DNA from: Formosa sp. Hel1_33_131
GTDB lineage: Bacteria > Bacteroidota > Bacteroidia > Flavobacteriales > Flavobacteriaceae
Reading direction: 5' to 3'
Assembly: GCF_001735745.1 (NCBI RefSeq)
Contig: NZ_CP017260.1
Location: 2,370,001 to 2,402,000 of the forward strand
DNA: 32,000 nucleotides
Shown here piece by piece: positions 1-4,937 of the stretch (position 1 is its first letter; every line of letters begins with the position of its first letter). Both the position numbers and the translations under genes were made by a program. Under the pieces are notes generated by a model. It worked only from the letters and a program-made list of their open reading frames with translations. It had not been told where the DNA came from and did no database searches.

Positions 1-291
1 ATTTGTATAGGCTACATCAACAGGTCTTAGTCTTATTTTGTTTTGATAATCTATAAGTGAAAATTTGTTGGGGTCAAAAGATCTTTTCTTATTATCAATC
101 ATCTCGATTCTAACTTTAATGTTGTATTGAACTATTTTTTTTGACTTTGTTCTAACATTAGTCACCGCTATTAATTGACTCGCTTTTTTAGTTTTTTCAT
201 ACTCAATAGTCAGGTTGTCCTCTTGAATTTTAATTTGAGAATAAAATACTTGAGTGAATAGGAATGCTAGTATTATTAATCTTGTTTTCAT
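1..291 (-). CDS. hypothetical exported protein, 5' part only (runs off the left edge)
   Basis: Absent from the ORF track because there is no stop codon inside the window. The minus-strand ATG (plus-strand cat at 289-291) opens MKTRLIILAFLFTQVFYSQIKIQEDNLTIEYEKTKKASQLIAVTNVRTK... The N-terminus is hydrophobic and signal-peptide-like. The frame stays open for all 97 codons down to position 1. Confidence 0.5.
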   Translation of the reverse strand, partial: MKTRLIILAFLFTQVFYSQIKIQEDNLTIEYEKTKKASQLIAVTNVRTKSKKIVQYNIKVRIEMIDNKKRSFDPNKFSLIDYQNKIRLRPVDVAYTN

Positions 292-312
292 ATTAATTTA
301 TTTTTTTTCTAT

Positions 313-350
313 TGCTGGGGCACGAGCAAAAGATGCTCGCGCTAGCGGGG
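313..350 (+). repeat. solitary REP-like hairpin repeat, variant copy
   Basis: tgctggggcacgagcaaaagatgctcgcgctagcgggg. It has the same CGAGCA/TGCTCG stem and CGCTAGCG palindrome as the four REPs that flank the RAYT genes. It differs in a 5-nt loop (AAAGA instead of AGA) and one extra G. It lies 13 nt downstream of the stop codon of the 364..1185 gene. Confidence 0.8.
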
Positions 351-363
351 TTACTCAACGTTT

Positions 364-1185
364 TTATTTGTATTCAATTTGTCTTTCCCAAACATATCCT
401 AATTCTCCTTTGGAAAACCTTTTCTTAGTAATCCAATTGTCATTCTTATCATAACTGTACTCCCAATTATTCCAATGTTTTTGTTTTCCATCCTTATCGT
501 ACCAATATTGTGTTAGGATATTATTTCGTTCATTATATGTAGAAATAAATTTTGTGTAATCACCATTTGGTCTTGTTAATTCAGATTCAATTTCATTACC
601 TTTTGTGTCATATCTATAAGTTCTTATGCCTTTTATTATTCCATCTGATTTGAAATCAGTTTCTTTAATCTTTTGGTTTTTGGAATTATATTCGTTAGTT
701 GTTTTAAAGGTTCGATTTGACTTAACACTCGATTTAGTCAATGCTATTTGATTTCCTTTAGTGTCGTATTCATTCTTTTGTAAAAAAATTAATTCATTAT
801 CAGAATTGTATGTTTTGTACTCAATAATTTTTCCATTTTCATCAAATTCAGTTGTTGTAAGTTTTTTTAGATTGCCATCTTTGTCAAAAGTGATACTTTT
901 TATAAGTTTTCCTTCTTTGTTTTTTGTGAGTTTTGTTTTTTCATAAATTGTATCATCATTTTCAAAACGCCAATATTCTATCAAATCTCCTTGTACATTA
1001 TAAATTTCCTTTCTGTTAACTTTTTGGTTTAAGGCTTTTTTACGGGTTAATTCTCCACTTCGTTTTGAACTGTATGAAGCTTCAGTAATTGTTTTAAATG
1101 TATTTGTATTTTCTTTTTTAATATTCTTTGTCGAAGAGCAAGAAAGGATTAATCCAAAAACTAATAGGTTGAGTATTATTTTCAT
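364..1185 (-). CDS. lipoprotein with YD-like beta-hairpin repeats
   Basis: 273-aa ORF. The N-terminus MKIILNLLVFGLILSCSS has a lipobox-like Cys. The body has a recurring motif: FDKDGNLKK, FDENGKIIEY, YDTKGNQIA, YRYDTKGNEIE, WYDKDGKQKH. No family assignment is possible without a database search. Confidence 0.75.
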   Translation of the reverse strand: MKIILNLLVFGLILSCSSTKNIKKENTNTFKTITEASYSSKRSGELTRKKALNQKVNRKEIYNVQGDLIEYWRFENDDTIYEKTKLTKNKEGKLIKSITFDKDGNLKKLTTTEFDENGKIIEYKTYNSDNELIFLQKNEYDTKGNQIALTKSSVKSNRTFKTTNEYNSKNQKIKETDFKSDGIIKGIRTYRYDTKGNEIESELTRPNGDYTKFISTYNERNNILTQYWYDKDGKQKHWNNWEYSYDKNDNWITKKRFSKGELGYVWERQIEYK

Positions 1186-1195
1186 AATGTTGGGT

Positions 1196-1247
1196 AACTA
1201 GTTATATCAAAACAAAAGGATGTGTTAACGGTTCTATATTTCGGATC
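1196..1247 (-). repeat. 73-nt intergenic repeat family, truncated copy a
   Basis: aactagttatatcaaaacaaaaggatgtgttaacggttctatatttcggatc aligns to the first ~52 nt of the copies at 3616..3688 and 4583..4655. The alignment stops exactly where the left REP of RAYT unit 1 begins. Confidence 0.7.
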
Positions 1248-1248
1248 G

Positions 1249-1277
1249 CCGCTAGCGCGAGCATCTTGCTCGTGCCC
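1249..1277 (-). repeat. REP hairpin (3' flank of RAYT copy 1)
   Basis: ccgctagcgcgagcatcttgctcgtgccc is the reverse complement of GGGCACGAGCAAGATGCTCGCGCTAGCGG. Confidence 0.85.
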
Positions 1278-1305
1278 TTAAACAAACTAAAGTTAGTATT
1301 TCTTC

Positions 1306-1847
1306 TCATATATCAATTTCTAAAACTGTTTGGTCTTCTTGATAATTTCTTGCACTACTATACTTCCAGTCTATTGGATCGGTAACAAAACCGCTTTCAA
1401 CAGGGTTGTTATGAATATAATCTATTTTTTGTTGTATTACTTTTTCACTCCATAATTCTATTGGTTTATTGTGTTGCTGCCAAAATTGACGTTGGTTAAC
1501 ATTGCTTTTCTTTTTACCTGCTCGTTCCATCATCCAGAATAACCACTCTTTTCTACTTTCTTGTGGATTTTCTTCTATTGATTTTATTAGTTTTCTTGCT
1601 GTAAAACCTTTAAAATCTCTTATTAATCCTGATGGATCTTCATTACTTGACCTAAATATTAAATGCACATGACTTGGCATAAAACAATAAGCAAATACTT
1701 CCATACCTTTTTCTTCTCTGCAATAATCTATACTTTCTTCTAATACATTAAAATATACTTGACGAGTAAAAATATCTAACCAATACACGGTAGCAAAACT
1801 TATAAAATAGGCTGCTGATTCGTTATGAAATTGTATTTTCTGCTCAT
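1306..1847 (-). pseudogene. REP-associated tyrosine transposase (RAYT, IS200/IS605-type Y1 HUH), frameshifted
   Basis: The protein from 1306..1788 is identical to residues 21-180 of the intact copy. The original ATG at 1847 now reads MSRKYNFITNQQPIL then stop, because the coding-strand run AAA is AA here (plus-strand ttt at 3341-3343 versus tt at 1831-1832). Confidence 0.8.
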
Positions 1848-1878
1848 AATATTATTTTTCTATCTTCTTTCTCTTGCT

Positions 1879-1909
1879 GGGCACGAGCAAGATGCTCGCG
1901 CTAGCGGGG
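1879..1909 (+). repeat. REP hairpin (5' flank of RAYT copy 1)
   Basis: gggcacgagcaagatgctcgcgctagcgggg. It contains a 6-bp stem CGAGCA/TGCTCG with loop AGA, followed by the 8-bp palindrome CGCTAGCG. Confidence 0.85.
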
Positions 1910-1923
1910 ATTGGCATCATTTT

Positions 1924-2755
1924 TTATTTTTTCAGCTCTATTATTTGTTGTTTCGCATATTCTTTTGCTCTATCATCTCCAAATTCAACAGTCTTTTCGT
2001 AATATTCGATTGCTTTTTTCTTGTCTCCTTTTAATTTATAACCTTGAGCAATATTTGAAAGAACAATATAATCTTTCGGATTAATTTTCTCAGCCCGTAA
2101 AAGTGGTTCAATTCCTTTGTCATATTCTCCCGTCAATAAATAAGTAATTGATAGATTTGATAAACTCTCAATATGATTTGGATAGAATTTCAGAACTGTG
2201 TTTGCAATTTCACGCATATTTTTGAGCAAGTTGTCATTTTCAGTATTGTATAATTGCAATTGATATGTTTGAATATCTAAAAGAAATTCTTTTTCTCCGC
2301 CATCATATTTTTCGTTGTTAGTCCAAGTCCAATTATTTCCAATTTTTGTGGAATATTCTATTGTTTTTTTAATTTCGGAAGTGAAATTTTTCCAATCAGA
2401 GACTTCTCCTAAAACATAGATTTTTCCAAATCGCATATCAAGTCTATTTGGATAAAGTTTAATTCCTTCGTTAATTTTACTTATTCCTTTTTCTAATTCT
2501 TTTTGGTCAAAATGTATTTTACTTCCTAAAAAACCTGCTGTTTGATTTAAACTATCTTTTAAAACAAGACTTTCTCCATTTGGTTCATTTGTCGACATAG
2601 CAAGAACTTCTTGCTTAGATTTCATAAAATGATAATTGAAATAACTCGTGTAAAGTTCAGCATCTTTTGGATTAGCCGAATTCCATTCAGTCAAAATTTT
2701 TAATTGATTAATAGTGTCATTAGTTTGACAATATTTTTGAAAGTCAGATTGATAG
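1924..2755 (-). pseudogene. C-terminal fragment of a TPR-repeat protein interrupted by RAYT unit 2
   Basis: The ORF-track entry 1924..2694 starts at a TTG, with no signal peptide. The frame stays open for a further 20 codons upstream (DYQSDFQKYCQTNDTINQLKI) and runs straight into the REP at 2756. The C-terminus is TPR-like (NLSITYLLTGEYDKGIEPLLRAEKINPKDYIVLSNIAQGYKLKGDKKKAIEYYEKTVE). Confidence 0.6.
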
Positions 2756-2758
2756 TCG

Positions 2759-2787
2759 CCGCTAGCGCGAGCATCTTGCTCGTGCCC
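2759..2787 (-). repeat. REP hairpin (3' flank of RAYT copy 2)
   Basis: Identical to 1249..1277. Confidence 0.85.
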
Positions 2788-2815
2788 TTAAACAAACTAA
2801 AGTTAGTATTTCTTC

Positions 2816-3358
2816 TCATATATCAATTTCTAAAACTGTTTGGTCTTCTTGATAATTTCTTGCACTACTATACTTCCAGTCTATTGGATCGGTAACAAAA
2901 CCGCTTTCAACAGGGTTGTTATGAATATAATCTATTTTTTGTTGTATTACTTTTTCACTCCATAATTCTATTGGTTTATTGTGTTGCTGCCAAAATTGAC
3001 GTTGGTTAACATTGCTTTTCTTTTTACCTGCTCGTTCCATCATCCAGAATAACCACTCTTTTCTACTTTCTTGTGGATTTTCTTCTATTGATTTTATTAG
3101 TTTTCTTGCTGTAAAACCTTTAAAATCTCTTATTAATCCTGATGGATCTTCATTACTTGACCTAAATATTAAATGCACATGACTTGGCATAAAACAATAA
3201 GCAAATACTTCCATACCTTTTTCTTCTCTGCAATAATCTATACTTTCTTCTAATACATTAAAATATACTTGACGAGTAAAAATATCTAACCAATACACGG
3301 TAGCAAAACTTATAAAATAGGCTGCTGATTCGTTATGAAATTTGTATTTTCTGCTCAT
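2816..3358 (-). CDS. REP-associated tyrosine transposase (RAYT; Y1 HUH transposase, IS200/IS605 superfamily)
   Basis: 180 aa. HUH motif in CFMPSHVHLIF. Candidate catalytic Tyr region DWKYSSARNY near the C-terminus. The size and the inverted-REP flanks match the REP/RAYT architecture. Confidence 0.9.
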   Translation of the reverse strand: MSRKYKFHNESAAYFISFATVYWLDIFTRQVYFNVLEESIDYCREEKGMEVFAYCFMPSHVHLIFRSSNEDPSGLIRDFKGFTARKLIKSIEENPQESRKEWLFWMMERAGKKKSNVNQRQFWQQHNKPIELWSEKVIQQKIDYIHNNPVESGFVTDPIDWKYSSARNYQEDQTVLEIDI

Positions 3359-3389
3359 AATATTATTTTTCTATCTTCTTTCTCTTGCT

Positions 3390-3420
3390 GGGCACGAGCA
3401 AGATGCTCGCGCTAGCGGGG
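3390..3420 (+). repeat. REP hairpin (5' flank of RAYT copy 2)
   Basis: Identical to 1879..1909. Confidence 0.85.
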
Positions 3421-3581
3421 GAATTAATTTTATTTTGCTCCAGAATTTGATTGTAGACTATGTTTAATTCGTTTTCTGATATATTGTAATTTATTTTTTC
3501 TTTTTCACTCATTTCTTGCTGAGTTTGAGAGTAGATATGTTGAGAAAAAATTAAGATTATTATCAATGTGATTTTTTTCAT
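3421..3581 (-). pseudogene. N-terminal (signal peptide) fragment of the gene interrupted by RAYT unit 2
   Basis: The ATG at 3581 gives MKKITLIIILIFSQHIYSQTQQEMSEKEKINYNISENELNIVYNQILEQNKIN. The frame then reads into the REP (SPASASILLVP...), so it has no genuine C-terminus. The ORF-track start at 3671 lies inside the 73-nt repeat and is not credible. Confidence 0.55.
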
Positions 3582-3615
3582 TTCGTTTTTGTTAGGATTT
3601 TGTTCAGCTTGTTGC

Positions 3616-3688
3616 CAACTAGTTATATCCAAATAAAATTTTGTGTTAACGGTTCTATATTCCGGGATCACATACCGTTTTGTTTGTC
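3616..3688 (-). repeat. 73-nt intergenic repeat family, copy b
   Basis: caactagttatatccaaataaaattttgtgttaacggttctatattccgggatcacataccgttttgtttgtc differs from copy c at about 6 of 73 positions. It lies 5 nt after the stop of the CoiA-like gene and 34 nt before the ATG at 3581. Confidence 0.85.
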
Positions 3689-3693
3689 ATTAT

Positions 3694-4548
3694 TTATTTT
3701 CCCTTCCACCATTTTTTCATATTATCTTTAAATATCAAACATTTAGGAACAGTCTTATCTTCATTTTCAGGTGTAAACTCCTCTCTTTCGTAACTAATAA
3801 AGTCTTTAAGGTCAATTTTCTTACCATAATTAGGTTTGAATATCGTTTTATATGTTTTATCAAAGCCTCCTTCAGTTCGTTCAGTTCCATCTTCCTCAAA
3901 CCAATGTGACTCCTCAATCCATCTGTCTGCATTGTCAAAATGTACAGGACTGACTTTTGAGCCATTCCCTTTTATCCAATAGTAAACTTTACCATAATAC
4001 ATTGAATGTAAATATTTTTCATATAATCTTGGTCTGAAATTTTCAGTACCCAAATCCTCTTTCAAAGGAACTATCCATAAAATGCTAACCTTCCGAGCGT
4101 AATATCCATTTACACGTTTAAGAATTTTTGGTAGTGTTAATGAACTTGCTTGGACTTCAATAACAATAGGTTTTCCATTTATTCTTCCGCTAATGTCTGG
4201 TGTTAATTTCTTTATGTCTTTTTCCTTATTTTCGGGTATTAATCTTTCAACTTTCCAATTCCCATCTGGAAATTCTTTTTTTAGTTCTTCACAAATTTCA
4301 GTTTTGCATTCAAAATGTAATTTCGATTCTCCACCACCATAAACAGAACTTAATCTTCCTTTATAAGCGAAATGGTCTCTTTTGTCAACACATTTTCTAA
4401 CTATCAATTCTTCAAATGTGTCTGGACAATAAAATGGTCCGTCTGATTTTTTTGCTTCATTGGCGTGAATAGGTTTATTAGTCGCACATATTTTCGCCCA
4501 ATCTTTAATTGGATGATAATTCTCTGGTTCATAAAATTCATTATCCAT
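3694..4548 (-). CDS. CoiA-like PD-(D/E)xK nuclease-domain protein
   Basis: I place the start at the ATG at 4548 (MDNEFYEPENY...). The track's upstream 30 aa are a translation of the 73-nt repeat. CoiA-like landmarks: FYCPDTFEELIVRKCVDKRDHFAYK; ESKLHFECKTEI (an H..K motif); LTPDISGRINGKPIVIEVQASSLT (a D...E-V-Q-x-S nuclease core). Confidence 0.7.
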   Translation of the reverse strand: MDNEFYEPENYHPIKDWAKICATNKPIHANEAKKSDGPFYCPDTFEELIVRKCVDKRDHFAYKGRLSSVYGGGESKLHFECKTEICEELKKEFPDGNWKVERLIPENKEKDIKKLTPDISGRINGKPIVIEVQASSLTLPKILKRVNGYYARKVSILWIVPLKEDLGTENFRPRLYEKYLHSMYYGKVYYWIKGNGSKVSPVHFDNADRWIEESHWFEEDGTERTEGGFDKTYKTIFKPNYGKKIDLKDFISYEREEFTPENEDKTVPKCLIFKDNMKKWWKGK

Positions 4549-4582
4549 TTTTAGTACTTTCTTTCGTTTTTCTAATACACCA

Positions 4583-4655
4583 CAACTAGTTATATCCAAA
4601 CAAAATCTTATGTTAACGGTTCTATATTTCGGGATCACACACCGTTTTGTTTGTC
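4583..4655 (-). repeat. 73-nt intergenic repeat family, copy c
   Basis: caactagttatatccaaacaaaatcttatgttaacggttctatatttcgggatcacacaccgttttgtttgtc. Internal inverted repeats are CAAACAAAA/TTTTGTTTG and AACGGT/ACCGTT. It ends 34 nt before the ATG at 4548. Confidence 0.85.
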
Positions 4656-4937
4656 TTTATTTTATTTTTGTAATGCCAAACCCTATCACCGCACGAAATC
4701 GAAGATTAGACGATGTCAAATCTATCGTGTGGTGAAACCCCATATCGGAACGGTTCCAACATACATGTAATCCAATAAAATAATATCTTAAGCTTCGGTT
4801 AAATTGCTTACAAAGATTTAGACTTTGGGGTCATCATCAATACTCAAATTTACACTAATTTTTTAAATGACAAAAAAACGCATCGATTTTAATAGATAAA
4901 TCTGAAATTTTATGTTGTAAAACTATTTTTCTTATAG

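Follow-up and report, generated by a model that had tools for sequence, protein, structure and literature searches.

Can a tyrosine transposase of the REP-associated kind (RAYT) move its own gene? In the current view, RAYTs are immobile and vertically inherited genes that move only their partners, the repetitive extragenic palindromes (REPs) and REPINs, and they have been described as single-copy and non-jumping (PMC2817692; Bertels and Rainey preprint). The question is raised by a 32-kb stretch (hereinafter the window) of the finished genome of Formosa sp. Hel1_33_131 (2,735,158 bp; the window spans positions 2,370,001 to 2,402,000 of NZ_CP017260.1), in which a unit consisting of a RAYT gene between two inverted REPs is found twice. 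Comparison with contigs from the natural population suggests that this 665-bp element, with its one RAYT (TnpA_REP, HUH/Y1) gene, probably behaves as an autonomous insertion sequence (IS) in the population of this bacterium. It represents a known kind of gene that behaves in an unusual, IS-like way.

A self-alignment of the window reveals that the two segments (copy 1 and copy 2, Table 1) differ by one 1-nt indel, TT at 1831-1832 in copy 1 versus TTT at 3341-3343 in copy 2, and are otherwise the same (664 of 665 nt, 99.85% identity). The pair is the sole long repeat in the window. On either side of both copies, similarity drops off sharply at the outer ends of the REPs; the ends of the unit are fixed, and no direct repeats were found flanking copy 1 or copy 2. 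The inverted arms (52 nt, 81% complementary) include a 28-nt REP core, GGCACGAGCAAGATGCTCGCGCTAGCGG, that is the same at both ends of both copies. Its four exact copies in the window, compared with 0 in the shuffled sequence, are inverted at each unit, at 1249-1276 (-) and 1880-1907 (+) in copy 1 and at 2759-2786 (-) and 3391-3418 (+) in copy 2. An earlier reading of this DNA, made from its letters alone (hereinafter the sequence-only reading), had likewise described two segments alike but for a single T, bracketed by inverted hairpin repeats and lacking a target-site duplication, and the alignment bears out all of this. The larger segmental repeat that it had considered as an alternative is not found; identity ends at the REPs in both copies. 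It had also assigned a 180-aa gene to both segments, which has to be corrected: only copy 2 encodes one, and the missing T shifts the frame in codon 6 of copy 1. The frame that starts with the ATG at 1847 of copy 1 ends after 15 codons, and the leftover is a 160-aa open reading frame (ORF) with a GTG start (1306..1788) and without the first beta-strand. The genome annotation includes one intact RAYT (AOR29313.1) and a 124-aa remnant (AOR29311.1). The identical frameshift is present in two independent metagenome contigs (L055 and L056) and is therefore a real allele, not a sequencing error.

The key evidence of mobility comes from a TPR gene for which three alleles are found among the population contigs (Table 1). 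These contigs (designated L001 and so on) were retrieved by exact-protein look-up in public assemblies, and their shared flanks are 99.65-100% identical to the window. In near-identical strains, the TPR gene is intact, so that the empty-site allele which the sequence-only reading had proposed to look for does exist at this site (L009, L054); another allele joins its codon 20 to the left end of the unit, and the third one, present in the window itself, joins the right end of the unit to codon 21. Jointly, the three alleles reconstruct a clean insertion of the whole unit between two adjacent bases. No base is duplicated or lost, the position is ambiguous by one C, and the ends of the unit are the same as those of copy 1. 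A de Bruijn assembler could not have invented these junctions because no k-mer common to the empty allele and the unit spans them. Given this insertion polymorphism in a natural population, the unit is best regarded as mobile: its mobility is well supported at one site, the TPR gene, and the comparison supports the notion that the whole REP-RAYT-REP unit still moves or has moved very recently.

In the isolate genome, the situation is more complex, and the sequences on the two sides of copy 2 indicate that it joins fragments of two different genes rather than representing a simple insertion. Excision of exactly 2756-3420 yields an open 330-aa frame. This 'restored' ORF was considered as proof of a simple insertion and rejected: the listed TPR homologues do not have the first 53 residues, which belong to another protein family. 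The 120 TPR homologues listed align only to residues 54-330 of this frame, and nearly all of them are about 297 aa long, apart from one 256-aa remnant and a few proteins of up to 354 aa. The true start of the TPR protein, as seen in L009 and L054, is MRKILGTLIAILISQIGFSQD/YQSDF..., and the 53 codons at 3421-3581 match the N-terminus of a 124-aa secreted protein with 64% identity; Pfam searches with the 53-residue fragment and with several proteins of the surrounding island produced no matches. The 330-aa frame is thus a chance in-frame fusion. Hence the claim that one copy lies inside a gene stands insofar as its excision leaves an open frame, but the flanks come from two unrelated genes, and these composite flanks require a later recombination between copies of the unit. 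A search for proteins ending in the peptide that would result from read-through into the left end (PASASILLVPSKRKKIEK and variants) found none, the match being too short for the database searched.

Altogether, the left end of the unit is joined to at least seven distinct flanks (Table 1) and the right end to two, namely TPR codon 21 and a truncated 85-nt leader repeat that precedes a 273-aa gene. No conserved tetra- or pentanucleotide is found next to the left end among the seven flanks (..AATTC, ..CCAAT, ..GTACT, ..AGCAT, ..CAAGA, ..ATTCA, ..ACTTC). In contig L058, the order is the 3' end of the TPR gene, the unit and TPR codon 21, which is a cyclic path through a collapsed repeat. Since assemblers collapse both copies in this manner, left and right flanks cannot be phased from short-read contigs, the joins across the unit are arbitrary, and linking of left with right flanks was dropped once this path was found. 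Part of the surplus of left flanks may be real, and part of it artefactual. The arrangement of the isolate, including the frameshift, recurs in independent metagenome contigs (L003-L005, L056), and the unit in L051 is 5'-truncated such that its last 222 nt remain. A metagenome scan with a 28-mer specific for the left end identified 4 contigs, adding one known junction and two relatives with 89-92% identity. Of the 53 contig blocks that carry the RAYT gene, 51 are shorter than 5 kb, as expected for a repeat that breaks assemblies, and a plasmid search detected only distant homologues (at most 50% identity).

In related strains, a second, divergent RAYT-like gene is found (L006 750-1223, L002 933-1400, L055 1-95), with the motifs NHIH and YIHLNP and a hairpin of its own, CAAAGTCCCCCGACTTTG. 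The unit interrupts this gene twice, once in the 3' part of the coding sequence and once in the upstream hairpin region.

Table 1. Features of the locus in window coordinates, and junctions of the unit in population contigs (a slash marks a junction with the unit, a caret the uninterrupted site)
Feature	Position or junction	Strand	Source and remarks
Unit copy 2, 665 nt	2756..3420	-	- strand left end CCCCGCTAGCG..., right end ...GCTAGCGGCGA (RAYT sense strand); the sole intact RAYT gene found is in this copy
Unit copy 1, 664 nt	1246..1909	-	as copy 2, but one T is missing
Intact RAYT gene, 180 aa	2816..3358	-	AOR29313.1 / WP_069677492.1; H60-V-H62, W123-Q124, putative catalytic Y144 (DYIHNNP), W161-K-Y-S-S
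RAYT pseudogene	1306..1847	-	-1 frameshift in codon 6; AOR29311.1 is the 124-aa GenBank remnant; 160 aa in RefSeq
Left-end REP, copy 2	3390..3420	-	CCCCG-CTAG-GCGCGAGCA-TCT-TGCTCGTGC-CC; 9-bp stem, conserved G.T pair
Right-end REP, copy 2	2756..2787	+	TCGCCG-CTAG-hairpin; inverted relative to the left-end REP
Left-end REP, copy 1	1879..1909	-
Right-end REP, copy 1	1246..1277	+	adjoins the shortened 85-nt leader repeat
Solitary REP, left-end type, 5-nt loop	316..350	-	just upstream of the next gene
TPR gene without first 20 codons (signal peptide)	1924..2755	-	codon 21 immediately follows the copy 2 right end; FORMB_22940 is the 256-aa GenBank remnant
First 53 codons of unrelated small secreted-protein gene	3421..3581	-	cut off by the left end of copy 2; full-length relatives have 124 aa
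Truncated 85-nt leader repeat	1195..1245	-	upstream half replaced by the right end of copy 1
Full 85-nt leader repeats	3616-3700, 4583-4667		full copies in the window; the ~85-nt repeat is further seen, not necessarily in full, at L006 1-55, L009 160-243 and L050 200-285
TPR site, empty	AGTCAAGA^CTATCAATC (longer: ...TTTAGTCAAGA^CTATCAATCTG...)		L009, L054
TPR site, left junction	AGTCAAGA/CCCCGCTAGCG (longer: ...TTTAGTCAAGA/CCCCGCTAGCG...)		codon 20 to left end; L053
TPR site, right junction	GCTAGCGGCGA/CTATCAATC (longer: ...GCTAGCGGCGA/CTATCAATCTG...)		right end to codon 21; window, L002, L057, L059
Left flank 1	small secreted-protein gene		window copy 2
Left flank 2	just after the TPR stop codon		window copy 1
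Left flank 3	truncated 204-codon gene		L001, L008
Left flank 4	3' part of the second RAYT-like gene		L002, L006, L007, L048
Left flank 5	upstream hairpin region of the second RAYT-like gene		L055
Left flank 6	TPR codon 20		L053
Left flank 7	second-type leader repeat		L050

The protein encoded by copy 2 matches the Pfam Y1_Tnp family and contains both the HUH motif and a tyrosine in the Y---NP signature of class 2 TnpA_Y1 (PMC6006769). The curated NCBI model for RAYTs, NF047646 REP_Tyr_transpos, recognises it with 94.1 bits (cutoff 80), whereas NF033573 transpos_IS200 gives 35.3 bits, below its cutoff of 55; thus, the protein is a RAYT rather than an ordinary IS200 TnpA, the alternative that the sequence-only reading had set against its own. 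The best sequence matches in the PDB are IS200-like proteins. In an alignment with the E. coli TnpA_REP (PDB 4ER8), IDYIHNNPVESGFV matches VDYIYINPVKHGWV, such that Y144 corresponds to Y115 and N148 to N119, which suggests that Y144 in DYIHNNP is the catalytic tyrosine. The HVH and YSSARNY (163-169) motifs noticed earlier are both present; the latter, however, is the conserved C-terminal 'W-x-Y/F-S-S' tail and does not contain the nucleophile.

The REP, in the CCCCG-CTAG-GCGCGAGCA-TCT-TGCTCGTGC orientation, is predicted to fold as DNA into a 9-bp stem with a G.T pair (-9 to -11 kcal/mol, z down to -4.4); the opposite strand has a C.A mismatch and a weaker fold. Among 25 distinct REPs of Flavobacteriaceae, 96% of the cells pair, compared with 18-61% in slid alignments used as the control, and three pairs show compensatory changes. 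The loop-closing pair changes from A-T to G-C in 11-12 of the 25 sequences, and the G.T pair is retained in 24. The same REP sequence is located just upstream of RAYT homologues with 70-83% identity in Flavobacterium, Maribacter and Euzebyella, with an inverted, more variable REP downstream, and the REP-RAYT-REP layout is also found in L013, L019, L025, L028 and L031. The earlier reading had noted one solitary REP outside the units in the 32 kb, and this REP is confirmed; about 15 nt past its hairpin also match the left end of the unit. In the region 291-350 (- strand), the whole spacer from this REP to the ATG of the downstream 206-aa gene loosely resembles the leader that separates the RAYT start from the left-end REP; the region looks like a remnant left end that is now positioned ahead of another gene. 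In a relative with 92% identity, a doublet of about 110 nt (L049 1160-1275) consists of two inverted REPs and a spacer of about 45 nt and contains no gene; its stems carry compensatory changes, and it is a REPIN-like or MITE-like (miniature inverted-repeat transposable element) derivative. In Euzebyella saccharophila (L031, ~4185-4700), the 5' part of a homologous RAYT gene is replaced by REP-containing sequence, which recalls the REP insertions inside tnpA_REP genes of subclass 2.4 (Quentin et al. 2018). A contig titled Testudinibacter sp. (L027), which is attributed to a gammaproteobacterium (Pasteurellaceae), has the flavobacterial REP in its exact form as well as three related hairpins, as may result from contamination or horizontal transfer. 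No Rfam family was matched anywhere in the window.

Among the known systems, the closest one appears to be a RAYT (TnpA_REP) with flanking REPs, or REPtron, among which subclass 2.6 as defined by Quentin et al. 2018 fits best; it corresponds to group 5 of Bertels and includes mostly Bacteroidetes (PMC6006769, Table 1 therein). The gene between two inverted REPs is the class layout, with the same layout and REP in Flavobacterium, Maribacter, Euzebyella and others; the placement in subclass 2.6 is motif-based, the protein having the WQ, YIH[QN]NP and C-terminal SS motifs listed for it, and the length is compatible (180 aa versus a subclass median of 179 aa). There are also differences. The head of the REP is CTAG, not GTAG (in this class, a REP is a GC-rich imperfect palindrome with a 5' GT[AG]G head); subclass 2.6 is said to have 'atypical secondary structures' (PMC6006769). 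The residue preceding the HUH motif is S instead of N. REPs appear scarce, with one solitary copy in the window and, in a scan that allows zero mismatches, 1-2 exact matches in each species-representative genome; the species representative of Formosa sp. Hel1_33_131, a metagenome-assembled genome, has one (L030). Furthermore, RAYT copies in the same genome share on average 40.7% identity in subclass 2.6, compared with 99.4% for IS200 (PMC6006769), whereas here the identity is 99.85% and there is a filled/empty polymorphism. A RAYT would be expected as a single fixed copy that does not change its location; instead, there are two such copies and no fewer than seven left flanks. Duplicates with at least 95% identity are recorded for 2-7.7% of RAYTs (PMC5581495), so that two near-identical copies by themselves, though uncommon, have precedents. 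The novelty of this locus lies in the filled/empty polymorphism, whose ends are set exactly by the REPs.

The unit resembles the IS200/IS605 elements (IS608, ISDra2, IS200) in having a Y1 HUH transposase, hairpins at both ends and near-identical copies, and in being inserted without target duplication, as indicated by the TPR alleles. Nevertheless, it falls outside this family on four counts: the profile score is below the IS200 cutoff; the tyrosine signature is Y---NP (YIHNNP), not Y---Q; the ends are inverted copies of one REP, not two different subterminal hairpins in the same orientation; and there is no conserved target tetranucleotide among the seven left flanks. It also lacks tnpB. With REPINs, the unit shares the two inverted REPs that bound it, and a relative (L049) carries a gene-less doublet of this kind; however, the spacer of the unit, about 600 nt long, encodes the transposase, such that the element would be autonomous. 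The unit also sits inside genes, whereas REPINs are reported to be almost confined to intergenic positions, with about one duplication per 10^8 generations (Bertels and Rainey preprint).

Several observations weigh against mobility of the unit. The isolate has just two detectable copies, one of which is dead, and the intact protein has a single GenBank accession. The imbalance of two right-end versus seven left-end flanks could be explained by a one-sided rearrangement at a fixed copy, or by recombination in a variable island, as well as by repeated transposition, and, with the two units collapsed in short-read contigs, a matched pair of left and right junctions is available at one site only. 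The left end lacks a conserved target tetranucleotide, unlike IS608 or ISDra2. Furthermore, one REP forms both ends in inverted copies, which an enzyme acting on single strands would meet in opposite orientations on any one strand, so that the mechanism cannot simply be equated with that of IS608. The unit is known from its sequence, not from an excised circle, transposase activity or expression. In an alternative view, the RAYT does not transpose at all and the unit serves as portable homology in a hypervariable island, the duplicate and the various flanks being products of homologous or illegitimate recombination and of cassette exchange between strains. Gene sets differ among L001, L002, L006, L009, L050 and L051, with breakpoints at the unit ends and leader repeats; the right-end junction with the 273-aa gene is constant in nearly all contigs and the left flanks vary; the flanks of copy 2 need a recombination event; and L051 holds a 5'-truncated unit. 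We nevertheless consider recombination without transposition unlikely. Copies that already exist can recombine, but this cannot account for the first one to enter the TPR gene. The left and the right junction in this otherwise intact gene lie at one and the same position between two bases; the unit ends are those found at the other site, and no homology is shared. In both copies, identity ends exactly at the REP ends.

It is conceivable, too, that mobility of the unit depends on a different enzyme, which recognises REP hairpins and acts in trans, such as the second RAYT-like protein, the transposase of another IS with REPs as its targets, or a nuclease or recombinase of the host. Several contigs contain a second Y1-type gene beside the unit (L006 750-1223, Pfam Y1_Tnp, 26.9 bits), and known ISs use REPs as targets (PMC2817692). 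This gene, however, has its own, different hairpin, is truncated by the unit and is absent from the window, REP/RAYT pairs are reported to be mutually specific (PMC6006769), and in other genera the REP of the unit is also found flanking RAYT homologues (70-83% identity); movement in trans therefore appears quite improbable. As for the duplication being an assembly or sequencing artefact, metagenome assemblers do mis-join across the repeat, as in L058, and the sole difference between the copies falls in a short T run. The window, though, matches a finished isolate genome, all four unit junctions in it recur at 100% identity in independent contigs (L003-L005 and L010, L056, L057, L059), and so does the frameshift (L055, L056); an artefact is effectively refuted by these contigs.

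If the unit is mobile by means of its own RAYT, presumably through a single-strand mechanism, the enzyme would bind the 5'-CTAG-headed imperfect hairpin of each end on single-stranded DNA and cut the outer boundaries via Y144 and an HUH-bound metal, and the segment would then move by 'peel and paste' in the IS200/IS605 style, with zero duplication. The history of the locus probably started with a resident unit beside the 273-aa gene, and new copies then inserted nearby, into the TPR gene and the small secreted-protein gene; recombination between two direct copies, with loss of the DNA between them, would have produced the composite copy 2, and the resident copy would later have gained the frameshift. 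Thus, of the recent self-mobilisation proposed in the sequence-only reading, the recent movement of the unit stands, by virtue of the TPR polymorphism and not of the evidence originally adduced; the role of its own RAYT is an inference, one copy is a pseudogene and the other one is composite.

The units reside in a cassette island that extends from the side of a TonB-dependent receptor (window ~4768 upward) to the DUF2721/fumarase side beyond the window start, and the gene content of this island (window ~1-4768; L001, L002, L006, L009, L050, L051) varies among near-identical strains. It includes genes for a CoiA-like nuclease, the TPR protein, the 273-aa repeat protein, a 222-aa ORF (truncated, of unknown family), an HTH protein, a TonB_C protein and an outer membrane protein beta-barrel; homology resumes at a GC-rich hairpin, CCGCCACGCTTTAGCGTGGTGGCG (L001 ~5205). 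Ahead of most cassettes there is a conserved leader repeat, which is of one of two types. The ~85-nt repeat is located 10-30 nt upstream of the start codons of successive cassette genes, has the core GTGATCYCGRAATATAGAACCGTTAACA...TTTTGTTTGGATATAACTAGTT with an AACGGT/ACCGTT inverted repeat, and has no match in Rfam. The other one, CCCCCGTATTCTATGATTAAAACAYGCAAYTAAT, precedes other cassette genes (L054 1153-1190, L002 2916-2950, L050 3834-3870 and 1562-1572); in L050, the left end of the unit cuts this repeat after 12 nt, and copy 1 of the window occupies the spot where it begins in other strains. GC skew, computed for replication direction and strand bias, follows gene strand only and is uninformative at 32 kb. 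Given that the right end is fixed beside the 273-aa gene, whereas the left end has another partner gene, often a truncated one, in almost every strain, one could speculate that the RAYT unit is the engine of the island: much like IS91/ISCR elements, it might capture or delete the DNA next to it in one-ended, RAYT-mediated events, and these, in concert with the conserved leader repeats, would shuffle the cassettes. We regard this idea as a long shot; if true, a domesticated-type Y1 enzyme would generate gene-content diversity in a streamlined marine bacterium.

A bona fide RAYT with its own REPs and an insertion polymorphism in genes would stand, as a living intermediate, between the insertion sequences of the IS200 type and RAYTs that have been domesticated. 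With its 665 bp, defined ends and defined empty site, the unit would be a tractable system in which to study how RAYTs cut and join DNA in vivo and what is lost upon domestication. The host is an abundant, bloom-associated flavobacterium, and the unit, together with recombination of its copies, shapes the variable gene island of this organism.

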